A stretch of DNA of 64,000 bases from a virus (IMGVR_UViG_2925891887_000001); one strand, 5' to 3'. Positions 45,075 to 52,507 are shown, counted from the first letter of the stretch. Numbers and translations: made by a program. Notes: a model not told the origin generated them from the letters alone.

Positions 45075-46310
45075 ATGACGACTACTGCACTGCAAAATGA
45101 AAAAAATCCTTCTGATTACCTTGTTTGCAAGTGGTGCGGCAAATCATTTCACTATTTTAAGTCCCATGTAGCCAATGGTAATTGCGAGGGCATTCCTGAG
45201 TCAGTAAAAGATGCCGATCCTGACACCGTACTGAAAATGTACACAACGCAGTTTCCAGATGAACCAACGCTATCGAAAAAGGCACTTGATGCAATTCAAG
45301 CTAAACGTGCCGAGCAAAAAAGCGAAATGGCCAAATCTTCTGGCTTGACCAGTAGCCCTGGCTACACAGGCACAGTTGAGTACAAGACAGATCTGGTCGC
45401 AGCTCACGAACTGCTAAACGTAACAGTGGAAGAACTCGGAACAAAACGTGGGACGCCGCTCATGGTTAGCGTCAACGTCAATACGCCGTATCCAGAGTTC
45501 GTTCCCGAAGTGAAGAAAGGCTACGTATATGGCGACTTCGAACTGATCAAAGATATTTTCATGATGCTTGAACTTGGCATACCTGGCTATTTGTGGGGTC
45601 ATGCAGGAACAGGCAAATCGTCATTGCCTACACAGCTATGTGCTTTGCTCAATCGTCCGTTGATCCGTGCCCAACATACAGCATCAATGGAAGAGGCACA
45701 TGTTACGGGGCAAATTCTGGCGCGTGATGGCTCTACGTATTTCGAACCTGGCTTGCTTGCGCTCGCAATGAAGCATGGCTGGGTTTACCTCGCGGATGAA
45801 TACGACTTTGCGTTTCCACAAATTCTTGGCGTGTATCAGCCAGTGCTGGAAGGTGAAGCGTTGGTCATCAAAGAGGCAACTCCAGAATGGCGTCGCATTA
45901 CTCCGCATGAACGGTTTGCTTTCATTGGCACTGGCAACACGAACGGATCTGGTGATGAAACCGGCTTGTACCAGGGTACAAACATCCAGAACGCCGCGAA
46001 CTTTTCGCGTTTTGGCATCGTTTCGAATGTGAAATACATGAGCAAAGACGCAGAGATCAACATGTTGACAAATGCAGGCATCGTGGATGAATACGCTGAA
46101 AAGATGGTTAAGTTTGCCGGTATCGTTCGCGATGGATACGAAGAACACCTCATTAGTCAGCCAATTGGCCCTCGTGAACTTTTGTTGTCGGCCAAGATTG
46201 GAATGATGCGAGGCGACTTTGTGACAGGTATTGAGCGTTCTTTCATTAACAAACTCCCTTCAGCTTCTGCACAAGCGGCTCGTGAAGTTGTTCAAAAAAT
46301 ATTTGGTTAA
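45075..46310 (+). CDS. MoxR/CobS-like AAA+ ATPase
   Basis: Walker A GHAGTGKSSL, Walker B-like VYLADEYD; 411 aa. Confidence 0.65.
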   Translation: MTTTALQNEKNPSDYLVCKWCGKSFHYFKSHVANGNCEGIPESVKDADPDTVLKMYTTQFPDEPTLSKKALDAIQAKRAEQKSEMAKSSGLTSSPGYTGTVEYKTDLVAAHELLNVTVEELGTKRGTPLMVSVNVNTPYPEFVPEVKKGYVYGDFELIKDIFMMLELGIPGYLWGHAGTGKSSLPTQLCALLNRPLIRAQHTASMEEAHVTGQILARDGSTYFEPGLLALAMKHGWVYLADEYDFAFPQILGVYQPVLEGEALVIKEATPEWRRITPHERFAFIGTGNTNGSGDETGLYQGTNIQNAANFSRFGIVSNVKYMSKDAEINMLTNAGIVDEYAEKMVKFAGIVRDGYEEHLISQPIGPRELLLSAKIGMMRGDFVTGIERSFINKLPSASAQAAREVVQKIFG

Positions 46311-46490
46311 TCGTGCGTAAAGGATGTTTCGGCTCTCTTATCGCTGCTTCTGAAACTGGTAAGGCTTGTCTGGTGTGTCCAGACAAGCCCGATTGTCACC
46401 AATCAGCAAAAGAAGTTGCGATTTCGATGCATGGGAAGTTCGTAGGCTTCCCCAATGACAAAATCAAAAAAACCAGAAAGGTAAAAACAC

Positions 46491-48854
46491 ATGAAGGCAC
46501 TGATGGTTCGAACTGACTTCTCACTTGGGGAGTCGGCTCTAAAAGCAGAAAACGCGGTGAAGATTGCCAGAGAAGCTGGCTACACCGCTGTAATTTCAGC
46601 AGATAGCATGAATATTGCGAGCGTTATTCCACTACAACGTGCCGCTGGTGACGACATGGCGGTTATTTGTGGTGTGAAACTAAACATTGTTGATGATCCC
46701 ACATACGAGCACCGGGCTAAACTTGCTAAAGAATCTATGAGATGTATGGAATCATTAGAGCGAGGACGTAACTACTCGTTTACCGCTCTAATTAAAAATG
46801 AGAAAGGATATCGCGACATCTGCGAACTAATGACGGCGGCCAACACACGAGAACAGTTCTACTTTGTACCGCGTCTCTCGCTCGAACAGTTGGTTTCTAC
46901 ATATGCCAAAGGCAACATCATCCTGCTTACTTCCGACATCGGTAGCGTGTTCCAACGCAACGATTTTGCAAAAATCATAAGCACACTGATTACAGCGGGT
47001 GGAAAAGACAACTTCTATAGTGTGGTTTATCCGCACCCTACCCCATTCTACGACCAGATTAACGTCCGGGCGATGAAAGTCGCCAGCGCATTGAAAATAG
47101 AGCCAGTGGCGTTCTATCCCGCTTATTACGAATCGATCGACGATGCAGACATTAAAGACATTGCGCACATGGTTACGAACAACATCAAAATCGACCAGCC
47201 GCATCGTCTGCGTATCCCCCACCAGCGAGATAACGCCGTCAATGGTCGCCGCCATCTCCTTGAGGCGCTTAAAGCCTTCTCCGTTCGCATGGATGTGCCG
47301 GTAACAGCTGCAATGGCCTCAACAACGCAGGATACCATTATCGATGCCTGCACATGGCGCTGGCATGAATTGCCGCCAGCACTGCCAAAGATGGCAGACG
47401 ACGAGCCTGCAACGCTGATGAAACTGGCTGTTGCAGGGCTGCGTAAACGTCTTACCACAAAAGAGTTTGGCTACACACCACCTGCTTCTGAGAACAGGGT
47501 TTATGTTGAGCGGCTAAAGTACGAAATGGACACGCTGACTCGCCTGGGATTCTGTGGTTACTTCCTGATGGTGCGCGATCTGATGAATCATAGTCGTGAA
47601 ACTGGCATTCCCGTTGGGCCTGGTCGTGGTTCCTCTGCCGGTTCTCTGGTGGCGTGGTGCATAGGCATAACCAACGTCGACCCAATCCGTCACGGTCTTC
47701 TGTTTGAGCGTTTCATCAACCCTGAGCGTCTCGACTTGCCGGATGCGGACTTGGACTTCAGCCAGGCACGTCGCCATGAGGTGATCGAGTATCTGAATGA
47801 ACGCTACGGCGAAGATTACGTTGCAGGCATTCCGAACTTCACCTACCTGGGCGCAGCCTCTGCACTACGTGATACCGCTCGTATTTATGGTGTGGAGTCC
47901 GCAGATATGGCGGTATCAAAAGAGCTGAAGAACGTCGAGGATGATAGCCTTCCATTGGAGGAGCTGCGCGAACAACTGGCAAGTCTCGACAAATACGCAA
48001 CAAAATATCCTGATGCATTCAATGCAGCCTGCAAGTTACAAAGCCTTATGCGTGGCTTTGGTAGACATGCGGCAGGGATGATCGTAGCAGGTGTTCCTCT
48101 GACAGAACGTACACCGGTTGAACGCCGTGGTGACGCGCGTTGTATCGCATTTGACAAGCGTTACTGCGAGGCTATGGGCCTAATTAAGCTGGACGTGCTT
48201 GGCCTGGCAACTCTCGATTTGCTCGATAGTGCAAAACGCTACATAAAAGAGAACACAGGTGAAGATATCAATCTTGATGCCATTTCTCTTGAAGATCGCA
48301 AGGTGCTGGATGGTTTTGCTGCAGGGTATACACAGGGCGTATTCCAGCTTGAATCAGGCCCAATGCGCAAGCTGCTTAAAGATTTAGGTGGTGGAATTGA
48401 GCCAATGAGCTTTAAAACGGTCGTCGCTACAACTGCGCTCTTCCGACCTGGCCCGATTCAATCCGGCATGTTGGACGATTATGTGTCCGTGGCCAAAGGC
48501 TTCATGGCCCCACATTCCTTACACCCAATGCTGGACGACATCTCTCGCGACACAAACGGAGTTCTGATTTATCAGGAACAGATCATGGCTGCTACGCGAA
48601 TCTTGGCGGGGTTCTCAATGGCGGAAGCAGACTCGGTCAGGAAAGCGATCGGGAAAAAAGATATGGAGAAAATGAAATCCATTGGCGGCGACTTCATTAA
48701 GCGAGCGGAGGAAGGCTGGGTGACAGTGTCACTGGATGATGGTTCTACGAGAAAAATCCATAAAGCAGCACGCCTACTTTGTGCTGATGGTGAGCGTCGC
48801 ACTTATGCCGAAGCAATGGCAATAAATGCCGACATAACGAGCTTCGATATTTGA
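46491..48854 (+). CDS. DNA polymerase III alpha-type (DnaE-like) replicative polymerase, N-terminal part
   Basis: Polymerase core block GRGSSAGSLVAWCIGITNVDPIRHGLLFERFINPER; ORF ends in non-conserved sequence just before the finger-domain motif. Confidence 0.75.
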   Translation: MKALMVRTDFSLGESALKAENAVKIAREAGYTAVISADSMNIASVIPLQRAAGDDMAVICGVKLNIVDDPTYEHRAKLAKESMRCMESLERGRNYSFTALIKNEKGYRDICELMTAANTREQFYFVPRLSLEQLVSTYAKGNIILLTSDIGSVFQRNDFAKIISTLITAGGKDNFYSVVYPHPTPFYDQINVRAMKVASALKIEPVAFYPAYYESIDDADIKDIAHMVTNNIKIDQPHRLRIPHQRDNAVNGRRHLLEALKAFSVRMDVPVTAAMASTTQDTIIDACTWRWHELPPALPKMADDEPATLMKLAVAGLRKRLTTKEFGYTPPASENRVYVERLKYEMDTLTRLGFCGYFLMVRDLMNHSRETGIPVGPGRGSSAGSLVAWCIGITNVDPIRHGLLFERFINPERLDLPDADLDFSQARRHEVIEYLNERYGEDYVAGIPNFTYLGAASALRDTARIYGVESADMAVSKELKNVEDDSLPLEELREQLASLDKYATKYPDAFNAACKLQSLMRGFGRHAAGMIVAGVPLTERTPVERRGDARCIAFDKRYCEAMGLIKLDVLGLATLDLLDSAKRYIKENTGEDINLDAISLEDRKVLDGFAAGYTQGVFQLESGPMRKLLKDLGGGIEPMSFKTVVATTALFRPGPIQSGMLDDYVSVAKGFMAPHSLHPMLDDISRDTNGVLIYQEQIMAATRILAGFSMAEADSVRKAIGKKDMEKMKSIGGDFIKRAEEGWVTVSLDDGSTRKIHKAARLLCADGERRTYAEAMAINADITSFDI

Positions 48855-48902
48855 GAATTAATTTATAAGATAAGAAAACAATTTGTTTAGTGAGTCTTAG
48901 AA

Positions 48903-49637
48903 ATGCCGAGTACGAAGTACAAAATCACAGAAGAATGGTTACGTCAGCGTTACATGGTTGACCTGATGAGAAAAGAAGACATTGCCGCCGAAGCTGGTTG
49001 CAGCAAGGCAAATATTGACCGCTTATTAGCCAAATGGGGGATCAGGCGCGGAAGCGCGCGGATCTCCGCTACCCCAGCCTGGAATCGTGGCAAAAACAAA
49101 AATAATGACGAACGTATGAAGCGTCTCTCCGAAGCCCGGACTGGCACTGGCAACCCTATGTATGGGAAAACCTCGTGGAATGCCGGTCTGCGTGCTGATA
49201 TCGATGAGCGAGTGGCCACCGTTTCGAAAAAGCTAACCGGCAGAACAATCCGCGCGGAGACGAAGGAAAAGCTGGCGGCTGCCAAACGCGGAAAGATCGG
49301 AGAAGAAGCGAACAACTACAAAGGTGGCATCATCGTAAAAACCAACGGCTACATGATGCAGCTGGTTGGTAACAATGGCGTTTCGCAATACGAATACGTT
49401 CATCGATTGATAGCGAAAGAACGTCTCGGTCGGGAGCTACGTGACGATGAACATGTCCACCATATTAACCGCGATACGATAGATAACGCCCCTGGGAATC
49501 TTGTAGCACTTCCAGAAGACGCCCACATTCGCCTGCATAGTGAAATGCGTGAAGAGATATGGAGCTGGGAGCGCCAACGGAACTGGCTGGCCTCCAATGG
49601 GTATGAGTTCGTGAAGATTGATGAGGTGACTGCATGA
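48903..49637 (+). CDS. HNH homing endonuclease inserted within the split DnaE gene
   Basis: HNH motif (HHINRDTIDNAPGNLVALPEDAHIRLH) and repeated basic NUMOD-like motifs (WNRGKNK, MYGKTSWNAGL). Confidence 0.75.
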   Translation: MPSTKYKITEEWLRQRYMVDLMRKEDIAAEAGCSKANIDRLLAKWGIRRGSARISATPAWNRGKNKNNDERMKRLSEARTGTGNPMYGKTSWNAGLRADIDERVATVSKKLTGRTIRAETKEKLAAAKRGKIGEEANNYKGGIIVKTNGYMMQLVGNNGVSQYEYVHRLIAKERLGRELRDDEHVHHINRDTIDNAPGNLVALPEDAHIRLHSEMREEIWSWERQRNWLASNGYEFVKIDEVTA

Positions 49638-50803
49638 AAATTACCGGTGTTGTCGAAGAGAGCAATGGCCTGACGCACGAACGAGCCGAAGAAATCTGGA
49701 ATATGTTTGAGAAATCCGGCGCGTATGCCTTCAACAAATCACACTCTGTTGCTTACTCCTTAATCAGTTATCAATCTATGTGGTTGAAAACTCATTATCC
49801 CGCAGAGTTTTTCGCTGCTGCTCTCACTATTCTTGGCGAAGATAAACACCAGGGGCTGGTTAAAGATGCGCTGACCTATGGCATTCGCGTATTGCCACCA
49901 GACGTTAACGTGTCATCTAACCGAATCGAGATCCGCACGCTTGAAGATGGCAGCCAGGTGCTGTATGCGCCCTTCTCTGCTGTGAAGGGGTGTTCTGAGA
50001 ATGGCTGCCAAGCCATCATGAGAGCGCGAGAAAAAGTTGGCGGCAAATTCGAGTCACTGGCGCAATTCGAAGAAGCTGTCGAGAAACGTGCCTGTAATAG
50101 TCGAGTGCGCGAATCGCTGCAAAAAGTAGGGGCGTTTGCATCCATCGAGCCAGGCAGTCTGCCAGCAACTGATCCAGAGCGCCTACGCGACCAGGCTGAA
50201 TTGATGGGAAACCTTGTCATAGACGCAGTTAAAGCCTCACGTCCGTTTGAGATGAACCCCAAACGTTCGGCTGAAATTAACGTACTCATGACGCGGATGG
50301 CGGCTGAAATGGGCTTAGGTGATGAACTAATCCGCCCCAGCATTGGTATTAAGCCGAAAATCATGATCATTCTGGACAATGCGAACGGCAATGATGCTCG
50401 AACCGGTTACTTTATGGAGAACGGATACGACGACTTTAAGGCCAAGCTATTGACGGCTGGAGATTTACGCATGGGCGATCTCTATGTCACAGGTGTTTGC
50501 AAGAAGGTTAAAGACAAAGAAAAAGACTACACCAAAGACGAGATCGGCCAGTTCACCGACTTTATGCGTGAAGAGATCAATCTGGTGCGTCCGACCTATG
50601 TGCTGACGTGTGGCAGCCGGGCAACTTCATTGTTTAACAACAAAAACAAGCCATCCGATTTGGTCGGCAGGAAGGAGTATCTTCCAGACCTTGACGTTAC
50701 TGTCTTTTACGGGTTTAACCCCAACATTCTTTACTTCAGACCTGAAGAGGGAGAACGACTAGAAGCGATATTAGCCGACGTAGCAGAAACTATTAAGACG
50801 TGA
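49634..50803 (+). CDS. DnaE-like polymerase, C-terminal part
   Basis: Begins with the conserved finger motif region (GAYAFNKSHSVAYSLISYQSMWLKTHYPAEF); own ATG overlapping the HNH stop. Confidence 0.75.
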   Translation: MKITGVVEESNGLTHERAEEIWNMFEKSGAYAFNKSHSVAYSLISYQSMWLKTHYPAEFFAAALTILGEDKHQGLVKDALTYGIRVLPPDVNVSSNRIEIRTLEDGSQVLYAPFSAVKGCSENGCQAIMRAREKVGGKFESLAQFEEAVEKRACNSRVRESLQKVGAFASIEPGSLPATDPERLRDQAELMGNLVIDAVKASRPFEMNPKRSAEINVLMTRMAAEMGLGDELIRPSIGIKPKIMIILDNANGNDARTGYFMENGYDDFKAKLLTAGDLRMGDLYVTGVCKKVKDKEKDYTKDEIGQFTDFMREEINLVRPTYVLTCGSRATSLFNNKNKPSDLVGRKEYLPDLDVTVFYGFNPNILYFRPEEGERLEAILADVAETIKT

Positions 50804-50810
50804 TCCAATA

Positions 50811-50836
50811 AACATGGCCATAAAGGCCATGTTTTC
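50811..50836 (+). terminator. Rho-independent terminator
   Basis: ACATGGCC-ATAAA-GGCCATGT hairpin followed by TTTT. Confidence 0.65.
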
Positions 50837-50905
50837 CCTTATCCCCTCACCCCCCCTATCTTCAAGCTCATTGCCTCATCATTACAATGATATAATCAAT
50901 ACAAA

Positions 50906-51361
50906 ATGATAAGTGATAAGGAAATGTGCATGATCGCCGATATTTACGAGAAAATAATGTCTGATCTCGAGTTTGACCGAGACAATCTGGAGGAAGTCTG
51001 GCGTAGACAACCCCGCCTTTTAATGGAGTATGGCTCAAAACTCGCTCATGCAGAAAGAAGTGTCGCAGAGGCAAAACTTAACCTTGAAGCTGTTGAAGCA
51101 AAGCTATACGACACAGAGCGTAAGAACTTGAGTATGAACGGCATTAAGTTCAACGAATCTGTACTGGACGCTAAGGTTAAAACAAACCCACAGTATCTGT
51201 CTAAAAGGCAGAAGTTGGATGAAGCACGGCACATCGCAGACATATACAAACATGCTGTCGCCGCCTTTTCGCATCGCCGAGACATGATCGTTCAGGCGTC
51301 AAAGATGGCCATCGTTGAATTAGAGCGATTAGGCTCTGAACGCTTTATTACTCCCCGTTGA
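50906..51361 (+). CDS. hypothetical protein (possible recombination mediator)
   Basis: 151-aa helical ORF immediately upstream of the SSB gene; function not supported by motif. Confidence 0.45.
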   Translation: MISDKEMCMIADIYEKIMSDLEFDRDNLEEVWRRQPRLLMEYGSKLAHAERSVAEAKLNLEAVEAKLYDTERKNLSMNGIKFNESVLDAKVKTNPQYLSKRQKLDEARHIADIYKHAVAAFSHRRDMIVQASKMAIVELERLGSERFITPR

Positions 51362-51478
51362 TTTTTGATAGATAATAAGTAAGTACTGATCTATCATTTA
51401 ACAGCTCGAAAGAGCCACGAATGAACGAAAGCCCAACGCGCATAGCGCCATCGGCCAAATCACAACAAGGAGAAACAC

Positions 51479-52507
51479 ATGTCTAAGACATTACTTGATT
51501 TGCTTAACAAAACTCGTGAAGACATTGCCGCCAAACGTGGTAACAACGTTGATCTGACTCGCTTAAAAGACGGCGTCAACTATATCCGCATCTTCCCGAA
51601 TAAAGACGACCCAAACGGTAAGTTCTTCCAGACTTTCGGTATGCACTACGTTAAGTATCAGAACGAGGAAGGTAAAGAAGCAACCAACGCTTATATTTGT
51701 GAGCAACATACTCACGGTCGCGCTTGTCAGCTATGCGAAATGGTGATGGAAGGTCGCGCTCGTCACAAGGGTAACAAAGCAATGGAAGAACGCATCGGTC
51801 AAATGCGTGCCACTCCTCGCTACCTGGTCAACGGCATTCTTTCTGCTCGTGAGGATTTCGCAGATGCTGAGAAATGCCAGTTAATCGAGCTGCCGTCTAC
51901 TGTATTCGATGATATCTGCAAAGCAATCACCGAAGACATCGCTGATGATATCGGCAATCCACTGAGCAAAGAGGAAGGCTACGCATTCCTGATTAAACGT
52001 ACTGGCTCTGGTCGCGATACCAAATATGACGTCTCGCCTAAGCGTAAAGTCTACAAAGGCGATATCGAAGATAAATTCTGGAATACCCAGCATGATCTGA
52101 TCGCATACGCAAATCAGGCTGATGAAACTCGTCTTCTGTCGACAGTTCGCACTATGGGTCGTCTGATTGGCATCGCTGCACCAACTGCCGCAGCATCTGC
52201 ACCAGCAATTTCCTCAACCGCGAAAACATCGGCTGCGGCACTACCTGGATTTGGCTCTGTCACTGGTCATACGGAGGGTGCGACTGCTGTAGCTACCGCT
52301 CATACCCCAGCTTCTGAACCAACCAGTCTGGTTGATGAAGAAATCCTCCGTGCCGTTGAAACTGAATTTAAACCAGAAGCAAGTCCCGCTGCCGTTGCAG
52401 TATCAGTCAAAGAGTCTGAAGCAGTCGCAACGACATCTGTAGCAGCCGCATCTGCGACGGAAGATGAAGGTCTGGATGACCTACTGAGAGAGCTGGACTC
52501 TCTGTAA
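51479..52507 (+). CDS. single-stranded DNA-binding protein (T4 gp32-like)
   Basis: Zn-binding His/Cys cluster (HTHGRACQLCE), Ala/Ser-rich linker and acidic C-terminal tail (EDEGLDDLLRELDSL). Confidence 0.6.
   Translation: MSKTLLDLLNKTREDIAAKRGNNVDLTRLKDGVNYIRIFPNKDDPNGKFFQTFGMHYVKYQNEEGKEATNAYICEQHTHGRACQLCEMVMEGRARHKGNKAMEERIGQMRATPRYLVNGILSAREDFADAEKCQLIELPSTVFDDICKAITEDIADDIGNPLSKEEGYAFLIKRTGSGRDTKYDVSPKRKVYKGDIEDKFWNTQHDLIAYANQADETRLLSTVRTMGRLIGIAAPTAAASAPAISSTAKTSAAALPGFGSVTGHTEGATAVATAHTPASEPTSLVDEEILRAVETEFKPEASPAAVAVSVKESEAVATTSVAAASATEDEGLDDLLRELDSL

Follow-up and report, generated by a model that had tools for sequence, protein, structure and literature searches.

In Aeromonas phage Aeh1, nrdA is split by the free-standing HNH gene mobE, a case of "genes in pieces" (Friedrich 2007; Crona et al. 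2011, PMC3045599), and the polypeptides reassemble through terminal "tails" at the break. A replicative DNA polymerase is also made in pieces in T4-related Aeromonas phages. According to section 17 of a review (PMC2988022) that covers the work of Petrov et al., the two polypeptides of gene 43 (PolB) co-purify, and the gap between their genes holds the seg43 homing endonuclease gene (HEG) in phage 25 and a HEG-less intercistronic untranslated sequence (IC-UTS) in 44RR. Marine metagenomes contain "fractured genes" in the order host-N plus IntN, free-standing HEG, IntC plus host-C, and three of these are in DnaE (Dassa et al. 2009, PMC2677866). The split inteins there are complete and presumably active, the HEGs are of the GIY-YIG or Vsr-like type, and the model proposed for these loci predicts that the HEG is lost while the split persists. 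In cyanobacteria, DnaE is encoded by two genes at separate loci and the halves are covalently ligated by split inteins (Npu/Ssp; PDB 4kl5, 2keq, 1zde, 7qil). Finally, a DnaE-UDG variant is known from Yersinia/Salmonella plasmids (Timinskas et al. 2014, PMC3919608); that survey treats contiguous proteins, and fragmented sequences were re-joined as presumed frameshifts.

The locus studied here lies in a viral sequence of 64,000 nucleotides (IMGVR_UViG_2925891887_000001), the whole of which is called the window. Its features are as follows.

46491..48854, plus strand: dnaE-N cistron, 787 aa (Pfam PHP, DNA_pol3_alpha, DNA_pol3_finger), with PHP, polymerase core and most of the fingers; its C-terminal end is the N-side of the beta module
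48470..49745, no strand: imported mosaic patch of ~1.27 kb from the identity profile, the HEG with about 385 nt upstream and about 110 nt downstream of dnaE (putative co-conversion tracts)
48714..48851, plus strand: beta module N-side, G742-I787, GWVTVSLDDGSTRKIHKAARLLCADGERRTYAEAMAINADITSFDI
48855..48902, plus strand: intercistronic leader of 48 nt, 5' of the HNH gene (from the sequence)
48875-48888, plus strand: one copy of the palindromic motif AAAACAATTTGTTT, in the HNH leader
48903..49637, plus strand: HNH/NUMOD3 gene, 244 aa, a free-standing HEG (Pfam, phrog_21964)
49623..49637, plus strand: dnaE-C translation start region, within the HNH gene 3' end (from the sequence)
49634..50803, plus strand: dnaE-C cistron, 389 aa (Pfam HHH_6, weak UDG), with the last beta-module strand MKITGVV (49634-49654), the remaining fingers with FNKSHS, (HhH)2 and a UDG-like domain
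about 50363-50800, plus strand: family-4 UDG-like domain in dnaE-C (Pfam UDG, NCBIfam TIGR00758)
50810..50837, plus strand: Rho-independent terminator (stem and U run) ending the dnaE-N / HNH / dnaE-C transcription unit

ORF calling and Pfam returned the three plus-strand ORFs of the initial annotation, with the polymerase core in the first and the HNH/NUMOD endonuclease gene in the middle. The N and C ORFs start 3143 nt apart (2 mod 3), in agreement with the frame difference reported between them. Both are parts of one DnaE and not unrelated neighbors, since they aligned contiguously and colinearly with four uninterrupted DnaE proteins of 1168-1172 aa (SSU5, PhiR41_1, Cyrano, CMS-2020a), with no residue lost and 4-8 extra residues at the junction. 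On the NCBIfam DnaE model PRK05673, the N ORF covers positions 9-726 and the C ORF 725-886, and thus the two matches abut exactly. The C ORF had been said to start at GAYAFNKSHS; this was incorrect, and the real start is 28 residues upstream (MKITGVVEESNGLTHERAEEIWNMFEKS, then GAYAFNKSHS). By Pfam and NCBIfam, the domains run PHP-Pol3-fingers-(HhH)2 and then UDG family-4, without an OB or tau-binding domain. This is the family of the DnaE-UDG plasmid variant, in which a family-4 UDG-like domain replaces the OB and C-terminal domains, but a natural two-cistron form and an inserted module are not described in the 2014 survey (PMC3919608). The terminator has a GC-rich stem of 10 bp (AAACAUGGCC/GGCCAUGUUU) and then a U run; no sigma-70-like promoter or plus-strand terminator was found in 46200-50800.

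With 85-96% DNA identity to SSU5, Cyrano, PhiR41_1 and CMS-2020a, the element is classified as an SSU5-like phage-plasmid of E. coli. It is also syntenic with SSU5 and pHCM2-type elements, with CobT/CobS-like genes on the upstream side and a gp32-like gene two ORFs further downstream. Among the 106 complete E. coli genomes matching the region, 22 carried the identical split arrangement, and the same arrangement was found in Enterobacter (95% DNA identity) and Cronobacter (91%) plasmids. The HNH leader is conserved in Cronobacter, Enterobacter and a HEG-less Buttiauxella allele.

DnaE-C has translation signals of its own: a Shine-Dalgarno sequence, GAGGTG, at 49623-49628, a spacing of 5 nt and an ATG at 49634-49636. 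This ATG overlaps the HNH stop codon, TGA, at 49635-49637 (ATGA), suggesting that DnaE-C translation is coupled to that of the endonuclease. The homologous GGTG...ATG is retained in the Buttiauxella spacer, and the Shine-Dalgarno sequence and ATG of the downstream half are kept in all alleles compared. Both halves are under strong purifying selection (dN/dS 0.015-0.05 at dS 0.6-1.6), with dN/dS of 0.03-0.05 for dnaE-N against Cronobacter, Enterobacter and Buttiauxella, and 0.015-0.023 for dnaE-C. Together with split relatives that carry no HEG, the signals and the selection support the suggestion of the initial annotation that two polypeptides are made, "as in some T4-like split genes". This dnaE is a "fractured gene" by its sequence, predicted to give two polypeptides. 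Like Aeh1 nrdA, it is an essential replication-related enzyme gene cut into adjacent cistrons by a free-standing HNH HEG, with no intron and no intein; the cistrons are colinear on the same strand, the HEG ORF lies between them, the downstream one has its own translation signals, and both are under selection. In contrast to Aeh1, the carrier here is a temperate phage-plasmid, the split gene encodes a C-family polymerase, and reassembly is predicted. Also, the break is common to very many lineages, often HEG-less, and its residues are not insertion-made tails but are colinear with a module of the uninterrupted forms.

The same break was found without an endonuclease in at least five other lineages, namely Buttiauxella, E. 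kobei and three metagenomic lineages. These HEG-less spacers are 69-84 nt long, each with its own purine-rich Shine-Dalgarno sequence ahead of an ATG, and the frame offsets are 0 or 1. Two inverted copies of AAAACAATTTGTTT form 15-bp hairpins in two of them (L014 and L018). In Klebsiella, the same gap holds an unrelated NUMOD4-HNH-HTH HEG (cluster of 1105 member sequences), and unknown ORFs fill it in lineages L017 and L023. The break recurs throughout the DnaE family, in members with identity as low as 54% and in still more distant ones. At 50% clustering, nine DnaE-N clusters (756-790 aa) end directly after the module versus one uninterrupted cluster. This distribution indicates that the split predates the HNH gene of the window and extends far more widely. 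Since the break is also empty or otherwise occupied, the HNH gene would be a tenant and mobilizer of a pre-existing gap, not its unique cause, and the intercistronic gap appears to be a landing pad for free-standing endonuclease genes. In gene 43 of the Aeromonas phages, as presented in that section, related genomes likewise have a HEG or a short untranslated spacer in the same gap, and in both systems the HEG may have invaded an already split gene. The polymerase families (C here, B there) and the HEG families differ, and the two polypeptides are predicted in the present case. This locus also differs in having at least two HNH types, two unknown ORFs, mosaic patches and a break in an intein-like module.

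The HNH gene product scored above the Pfam cut-offs for both HNH_3 (31.9 bits) and NUMOD3 (27.6 bits), has an N-terminal DNA-binding part with NUMOD3 and a C-terminal HNH_3 nuclease, and is matched over its full length by phrog_21964 (HNH endonuclease). Its relatives form only five clusters, all at least 88% identical and all from Escherichia or Cronobacter. The gene has a dN/dS of ~0.2, and dS is lower in the HEG (0.15-0.38) and the junction than in the host dnaE (0.66-1.3). Across the imported patch, the window shares 91-100% identity with the split allele of Enterobacter and 38-78% with uninterrupted E. coli alleles; beyond its limits, identity to the best-matching uninterrupted E. coli allele is ~95-100%. 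The boundaries are sharp in the window, and a like pattern was seen around the Klebsiella HEG. These data indicate a mobile HNH gene, and the patch looks like the signature of homing with co-conversion by a putative endonuclease. The identical patch was present in three other E. coli plasmids in differing backbone mosaics. Because the boundaries are shared by all four E. coli HEG-containing plasmids examined, repeated homing and one ancestral acquisition with later recombination of the backbones are equally likely. The claim that the polymerase is split by this HNH gene therefore holds in part: in this E. coli lineage the split and the HNH gene arrived together in one imported patch, but in several other lineages the break lacks this HNH gene.

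The module at the break has ~55 aa and is inserted in the fingers, with the break at the turn before its last strand (AF2 model, pLDDT 86-90). It is absent from cellular DnaE, where the equivalent point lies between residues 729 and 730 of E. coli Pol III alpha. When the module profile was searched against the PDB, DnaE inteins were the only natural matches below E=0.01, and the E-value went from 0.005 to 1.5e-5 on adding more diverse members. With hhalign the probability for inteins rose from 76% to 92%, and in a shuffle test 0 of 3000 shuffles attained the real score; both used approximate Npu, Ssp, DnaB and gp41-1 intein sequences, of which the PDB searches are independent. Profile positions 26-47 also match designed TIM barrels, and so the profile includes a generic helix-strand motif. 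In alignments with the Npu/Ssp inteins, the module corresponds to residues ~57-102 of IntN plus the first strand of IntC, and its break falls in the same turn between strands. Against an intein origin, the cyanobacterial DnaE inteins insert ~30 residues further downstream, directly before CFNKSH, and no "living" intein was found at the site of the module among the DnaE homologues searched. On balance, we favor the reading of the module as a fossil of a DnaE-type split intein (the IntN end and first IntC strand) that now acts only as a non-covalent clasp.

An unlikely alternative is that this HNH gene itself made the split by entering a surface hairpin. The beta module would then be an ordinary lineage-specific insert unrelated to inteins, the HEG-less alleles would be scars of HEG loss, and the halves would associate via the general DnaE interface. 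The joint arrival of HEG and split in the window fits this, as does the Buttiauxella spacer, which keeps the HNH leader, the HNH ATG and the last ~17 nt of the HNH ORF and so resembles an HNH ORF with an internal deletion. There are precedents in Aeh1 nrdA/mobE and in the HEG-loss step of the Dassa model (PMC3045599, PMC2677866), and the similarity to inteins is short, with a profile that partly matches a generic motif. However, two unrelated HEGs and two unknown ORFs use the same gap, and the break occurs in DnaE lineages of very low identity while the HNH relatives are confined to at least 88%. Three independent methods point to inteins, with a score that grows with family diversity, and the break is in the turn that corresponds to the one where natural split inteins are broken.

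It is very improbable that the module is a functional split intein and that protein trans-splicing joins the halves, as happens with cyanobacterial DnaE or is presumed for the metagenomic fractured genes. The host-N / HEG / host-C order is that of the fractured genes, three of which are DnaE (PMC2677866), and the module resembles DnaE split inteins. The likeness to the Dassa loci extends to the host enzyme, the HEG stop overlapping the downstream start, and a HEG-leader hairpin kept in a HEG-less derivative, but the intein halves are present here only as an apparent non-catalytic remnant. A minimal split intein has ~138 aa and the module only ~55, with no counterpart of IntN residues 1-56. Block A with Cys/Ser/Ala at position 1 was not found, the module beginning ...AEEGWVTV straight after extein-homologous sequence. 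Block B TxxH is not conserved, and block F/G, the terminal His-Asn and a Cys/Ser/Thr at +1 are absent (C part MKITGVVEESNGL), whereas the cyanobacterial inteins have all splicing blocks. Pfam intein models did not match. Since uninterrupted homologues retain the module in frame, it does not look removable. The frame difference had been taken to exclude an intein. This holds for a functional intein, whether in-frame or trans-splicing, but the break lies within an apparent dead split-intein remnant.

Group I introns that encode HNH proteins classically occur in phage polymerase genes (SPO1/I-HmuI type), and the N and C ORFs align colinearly with uninterrupted homologues. A self-splicing intron carrying the HNH ORF, whether of group I (as the initial annotation had offered) or of another type, would give a spliced mRNA and a single 1170-aa DnaE. 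No Rfam intron family matched at E<=10, either in 46000-51500 or at the HEG-less Buttiauxella locus. Only 48 nt between dnaE-N and dnaE-C are non-coding, the HNH ORF abuts and overlaps the C ORF, and the DnaE-C start signals are conserved. The relatives are split without an endonuclease, and their spacers are too short for a ribozyme. An intron was therefore rejected as highly unlikely.

Ribosomal bypassing or read-through in the style of T4 gene 60 would instead give one polypeptide, at least in the short-spacer alleles. The T4 bypass element is associated with a mobile HNH cassette, according to a preprint (bioRxiv 10.1101/2022.08.31.505936), and the spacers have strong hairpins. This is hardly credible here, since the gap in the window is 779 nt, the frame offset varies among alleles (0, 1, 2), the Buttiauxella spacer has four in-frame stops, and every allele has a canonical, properly spaced Shine-Dalgarno sequence and an ATG. 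A decaying pseudogene or assembly error, for which PGAP's label of "frameshifted; incomplete" on DnaE-N in one record (RefSeq pSTEC388_1, where dnaE spans the record origin) could be cited, can be dismissed: many independent complete assemblies of several genera share the architecture, including the E. coli genomes and the Enterobacter and Cronobacter plasmids above, the halves are intact with dN/dS of 0.02-0.05 at saturating dS, and no single indel removes the 779-nt insert.

We consider it probable, with good confidence, that this is a fractured dnaE without splicing, made as two reassembling polypeptides, with a likely intein-fossil module and a gap into which the HEG homed as on a landing pad. 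One transcript would encode DnaE-N, the HNH homing endonuclease and DnaE-C of a replicative DnaE-UDG polymerase, and neither RNA nor protein splicing would occur. DnaE-N would terminate at its TGA and DnaE-C initiate at its own signals. With the dNTP-contacting FNKSHS on DnaE-C and the catalytic palm on DnaE-N, the halves would have to come together again; this split active site and the selection on both halves suggest that an active enzyme is assembled. The most likely route is the beta module, to which DnaE-N would contribute five strands and a helix and DnaE-C the last strand. It is broken in the turn where intein endonucleases reside, and without any splicing residue it would act only non-covalently. 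The donor of the HNH gene and flanking dnaE would have been a diverged split allele, from which they were copied as a cassette; the nearest relatives of the receiving E. coli backbone are uninterrupted.

For this family, we see about an even chance that an ex-split intein has been kept as a ~55-aa non-covalent clasp joining the halves of a replicative C-family polymerase, after losing all its splicing chemistry and two thirds of its length. Its old endonuclease slot would be a landing pad through which unrelated HEGs cycle, converting uninterrupted alleles into split ones, and possibly the reverse by re-fusion, in common E. coli and Klebsiella phage-plasmids.

The dnaE-N, HNH, and dnaE-C genes very probably make up a fractured polymerase gene that carries a mobile cassette. 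ORF calling placed all three ORFs exactly at the positions of the initial annotation, although DnaE-C was found to begin 28 residues upstream of the GAYAFNKSHS motif and not at the motif itself, as had been proposed. The features are as follows:

46491–48854, + strand: DnaE-N ORF, 787 aa, with PHP, DNA_pol3_alpha, and DNA_pol3_finger domains (Pfam)
48903–49637, + strand: HNH ORF, 244 aa, with NUMOD3 and HNH_3, both above the Pfam cut-offs
49634–50803, + strand: DnaE-C ORF, 389 aa, with HHH_6 and a weak UDG match (Pfam) and family-4 UDG (NCBIfam)
50363–50800: family-4 UDG-like domain in the C-terminal ~145 aa of DnaE-C (Pfam UDG, E = 0.0047; NCBIfam TIGR00758, E = 5e-8)
50810–50837: perfect rho-independent terminator directly 3' of dnaE-C

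The region was 85–96% identical at the DNA level to Salmonella phage SSU5 and Escherichia phages Cyrano, PhiR41_1, and CMS-2020a and, therefore, the window is an SSU5-like phage-plasmid. In all four, dnaE is a single gene of 1168–1172 codons. DnaE-N and DnaE-C were colinear with these uninterrupted relatives, with no residue lost and 4–8 extra residues at the junction, and their matches to the NCBIfam DnaE model abut (positions 9–726 and 725–886, respectively), in agreement with the earlier claim that the two ORFs are parts of one DnaE. The UDG-like domain stands in place of the OB and tau-binding domains of cellular DnaE, a DnaE-UDG variant that is already known (Timinskas et al. 2014; PMC3919608). 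A 67-aa ORF (46313–46516) overlaps the start of dnaE-N by 26 nt. It had no family matches on record, and equivalents were annotated or called in SSU5 (SSU5_051), Klebsiella, E. kobei, and the metagenomic loci.

Two ways of expressing the gene had been suggested, a group I intron with an HNH ORF or a polymerase made as two polypeptides. Positions 46000 to 51500 of the window were scanned against Rfam with permissive filters (E ≤ 10), and no group I or group II intron was found; a scan of the HEG-less Buttiauxella locus, which is split and lacks the endonuclease gene, found no intron family either. The only Rfam matches were spurious miRNA and snoRNA hits on the terminator-proximal hairpin, the miRNA hits being due to a long imperfect hairpin downstream of the dnaE-C terminator. 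The interval 50810–50935 (fold z-score -3.9) covers the terminator and this second hairpin, which runs into the start of the next ORF at 50906. Only 48 nt of non-coding sequence separate the DnaE-N stop from the HNH start, and the HNH stop overlaps the DnaE-C start. The intron is decisively contradicted by Buttiauxella plasmid p1WJP83, since its dnaE has the same 787 + 389 codon split with a 69-nt gap containing four in-frame stops. This gap consists of the 48-nt leader, the HNH ATG, five more bases, and a homologue of the last ~17 nt of the HNH gene, including the SD. Read-through or bypass was ruled out by the in-frame stops, variable frame offsets, and conserved SD and ATG.

A scan of the dnaE-N/HNH/dnaE-C unit found no sigma-70 promoter-like or + strand terminator-like sites within it, and DnaE-C has its own GAGGTG five bases upstream of its ATG. 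Together with the 3' terminator and the negative intron result, this leads us to infer that the polymerase would be made as two polypeptides from a single transcript. A leader hairpin (predicted fold z = -2.4, with no covariation support) could possibly sequester the HNH start.

The proposal of a pseudogene was rejected, as both halves are under strong constraint, with dN/dS values of 0.03–0.05 for DnaE-N and 0.015–0.023 for DnaE-C at a dS of 0.6–1.6 (pairwise Nei-Gojobori), and the architecture recurs across genera. Plasmids of Enterobacter ludwigii/asburiae (95% DNA identity) and Cronobacter sakazakii (91%) share the layout of 787 codons, 48-nt leader, 244 codons, ATGA overlap, and 389 codons. 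Sequencing error is contradicted by these plasmids and by E. coli: of 106 complete genomes matching the region, 22 have the identical 1.2 kb junction, which was plasmid-borne every time. RefSeq flags DnaE-N of pSTEC388_1 as "frameshifted; incomplete" and names DnaE-C, depending on the record, "uracil-DNA glycosylase", "helix-hairpin-helix domain-containing protein", or "DNA polymerase III subunit alpha". PGAP systematically mis-annotates what is a functional gene in two cistrons: in NZ_CP041426.1 and other RefSeq records, it calls DnaE-N a frameshifted or incomplete pseudogene.

The split is not confined to alleles with the HNH gene. With DnaE-N as the query, many homologues of 784–792 aa were recovered, at 87, 79, 78, 74, 70, 68, 62, 61, 59, and 54% identity, and uninterrupted forms of 1168–1210 aa were interspersed among them. 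The Klebsiella alleles (a cluster of 1105 member sequences) have another endonuclease gene in the gap, NUMOD4-HNH_3-HTH, whose product is 28% identical to the window HNH protein over just 57 aa of the HNH core. The gap is 70–84 nt long and free of ORFs in E. kobei and in three metagenomic lineages whose DnaE-N is 74%, 68%, and 62% identical to that of the window. The gap of the 54% lineage holds a 184-aa ORF (L017, 3681–4235), and that of a much more distant DnaE holds a 176-aa ORF (L023, 5324–5854) and a reverse ORF. The 184-aa ORF had no convincing match in Pfam, PHROG, or NCBIfam, its one PHROG hit being marginal and to a function-unknown family, and the 176-aa ORF had none in Pfam or NCBIfam; both are candidate endonucleases of unknown family or cargo genes. 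The break point was constant in every allele, with DnaE-N ending in ADIxxFDx and DnaE-C starting with MK(I/V)xxxxSE..GLS behind a purine-rich SD. The split is older and more widespread than the window's HNH gene. In one assembly (L019, 3501–6728), DnaE-N runs on in frame into a RecA_N-like segment as a 1075-aa fusion, with a ResIII/restriction-endonuclease and methyltransferase pair as its neighbours. This element has apparently been rearranged, with loss of DnaE-C.

The empty spacers carry strong hairpins of 12–15 bp. A palindromic motif, AAAACAAnTTGTTTT (window 48875–48888), is common to the window, Buttiauxella, and the 68% and 74% lineages. The window and Buttiauxella have one copy, and the HEG-less spacers have two inverted copies that form 15-bp hairpins (L014, 5887–5925; L018, 5044–5085). 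The motif may act as a regulatory hairpin in RNA or as an operator for a protein.

Among 5.8 billion proteins searched, the HNH gene had relatives in only five clusters, all at least 88% identical, all in Escherichia or Cronobacter, and all at the same dnaE site. In phages, tblastn gave only matches below 42% to the HNH core of unrelated HEGs, and phmmer against the PDB found no solved homologue. The gene is under purifying selection (dN/dS ~0.2), and its dS of 0.15–0.38 is two- to four-fold below the host gene value for the same pairs of genomes. This low dS is explained by a mosaic patch seen in sliding-window identity. Up to ~48,470 and from ~49,745, the window is ~95–100% identical to the best-matching uninterrupted E. 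coli allele, whereas between these points it is 91–100% identical to the Enterobacter split allele and only 38–78% identical to uninterrupted alleles. Third-codon-position identity falls from 0.93 outside the patch to 0.44 inside for CMS-2020a, the closest uninterrupted allele, and from 0.85 to 0.32 for PhiR41_1. The sharp switches indicate that a ~1.27 kb cassette, consisting of the HEG flanked by dnaE sequence (~385 nt upstream and ~110 nt downstream), was pasted into an "uninterrupted-type" backbone, and such a patch is what homing with co-conversion would be expected to leave. Three other E. coli HEG-containing plasmids have the same patch with differing backbone mosaics. The Klebsiella HEG allele shows a similar patch against the uninterrupted Klebsiella phage pJN2-26 (L010 against L009), which starts at the same dnaE-N position, ~nt 1980–2000, and reaches ~400 nt into dnaE-C. 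The common 5' boundary may be a recombination or cleavage hot spot. Of the original idea that an HNH gene splits dnaE, the presence of the gene in the gap stands, but it is not the unique cause, as the gap is elsewhere empty or otherwise occupied. The HNH gene is a passenger and mobiliser, not the sole cause of the split.

Compared to E. coli Pol III alpha (4jom), this DnaE family has a ~55-residue insertion, the beta module, between fingers residues 729 and 730. This region of an uninterrupted homologue was modelled with AlphaFold2 using a 25-sequence alignment, and the module was predicted to be compact (pLDDT 86–90), with four strands followed by a helix and a further pair of strands. As the break falls in the turn before the last strand, only that strand (MKITGVV) would come from DnaE-C, and the helix and the other five strands would come from DnaE-N. 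DnaE-C also carries the FNKSHS motif, which contacts the incoming nucleotide, so the halves must reassemble. Strand complementation within the module would be the most economical route.

The module is probably a relic of a split intein that acts as a clasp. When a module HMM was searched against all PDB sequences, DnaE inteins were the only natural proteins at E < 0.01. The first HMM matched 7qil_A at E = 0.005 and Npu DnaE at E = 0.07; with distant members added, these improved to 1.5e-5 and ~1e-4, among some 16 DnaE-intein entries. With intein sequences entered by hand, the hhalign probability for the Npu DnaE intein was 76% at first and 92% with distant members, none of 3000 composition-matched shuffles attained the real score, and DnaB and gp41-1 inteins gave no score in this control. 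The module aligns to IntN ~57–102 plus the first IntC strand. At the junction, ELDLMRVDNLPN/MIKIATR matches NADITSFDI/MKITGVV (the slash marks the break; a gapless alignment is offset by 2–3 residues), which puts the dnaE break in the inter-strand turn where natural split inteins are also broken. The intein similarity is short and the structural scores are individually weak. Profile positions 26–47 also match designed TIM barrels, so part of the profile is a generic helix-strand motif. A Pfam scan of the module alone (E ≤ 10) found no intein families, only scattered weak matches. A profile search of 1.84 billion representatives found no living intein at the module site, recovering only the DnaE family, its fragments, and repeat proteins that sum many weak stretches. 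The site lies ~30 residues upstream of the cyanobacterial DnaE intein site. Cys1/block A, the block B TxxH, blocks F/G, and the +1 nucleophile are all absent from the module, and uninterrupted homologues retain it in frame; splicing is therefore excluded, which agrees with the earlier rejection of an intein.

A neighbor-joining tree of DnaE-N residues 1–680 had a paraphyletic inner grade in which all members are split, and outer clades that hold uninterrupted forms with the full-length module. In the crown group (E. coli, Klebsiella, Salmonella, Cronobacter, Enterobacter, and Buttiauxella), split and uninterrupted alleles are intermixed, with backbone distances close to zero. The uninterrupted alleles of this group are 4–8 residues shorter exactly at the break, and the split alleles are colinear with the full-length outer forms. 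Clustering at 50% gave nine DnaE-N clusters ending just past the module versus one uninterrupted cluster. The tree, the shortening, and the cluster counts suggest a possible origin of the SSU5/E. coli uninterrupted alleles by secondary re-fusion.

Essential phage genes fractured by free-standing HEGs are established, namely Aeh1 nrdA/mobE, T4 gene 39/60 with mobA, and T4-like gene 43 (PMC2988022; PMC3045599). The states of the dnaE gap parallel those of T4-related gene 43, which has a seg HEG in phage 25 versus only untranslated intercistronic sequence in 44RR (PMC2988022, section 17). Marine metagenomes contain fractured genes with active split inteins, DnaE included (PMC2677866). The fractured-gene model covers HEG loss and separation of gene halves (PMC2677866), and the HEG-less dnaE spacers parallel its HEG-loss step. 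Our literature search (SSU5/phage-plasmids with HNH or Pol III, split phage DnaE, and intein relics) did not find this arrangement described. Within it, the two-cistron DnaE-UDG of enterobacterial phage-plasmids and its breadth are apparently undescribed. The same holds for the mosaic patches, for the intein-like module, and for the way different tenants succeed one another in a single gap.

In these phage-plasmids, which are clinically common, the catalytic alpha subunit of a C-family replicase thus occurs widely in a natural two-subunit form, now mis-annotated as a pseudogene plus a "uracil-DNA glycosylase". The alleles form a natural series (uninterrupted; split with an empty gap; split around HNH type 1, HNH type 2, or unknown ORFs; and, apparently, re-fused with shortened hairpins), which is rich material on the homing endonuclease life cycle and on the origin and reversal of genes in pieces. 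If the relic reading is true, a split intein has been reduced to a pure association domain, an end-state not spelled out in the fractured-gene model (PMC2677866), and the relic would be a very small natural heterodimerisation module for protein engineering.
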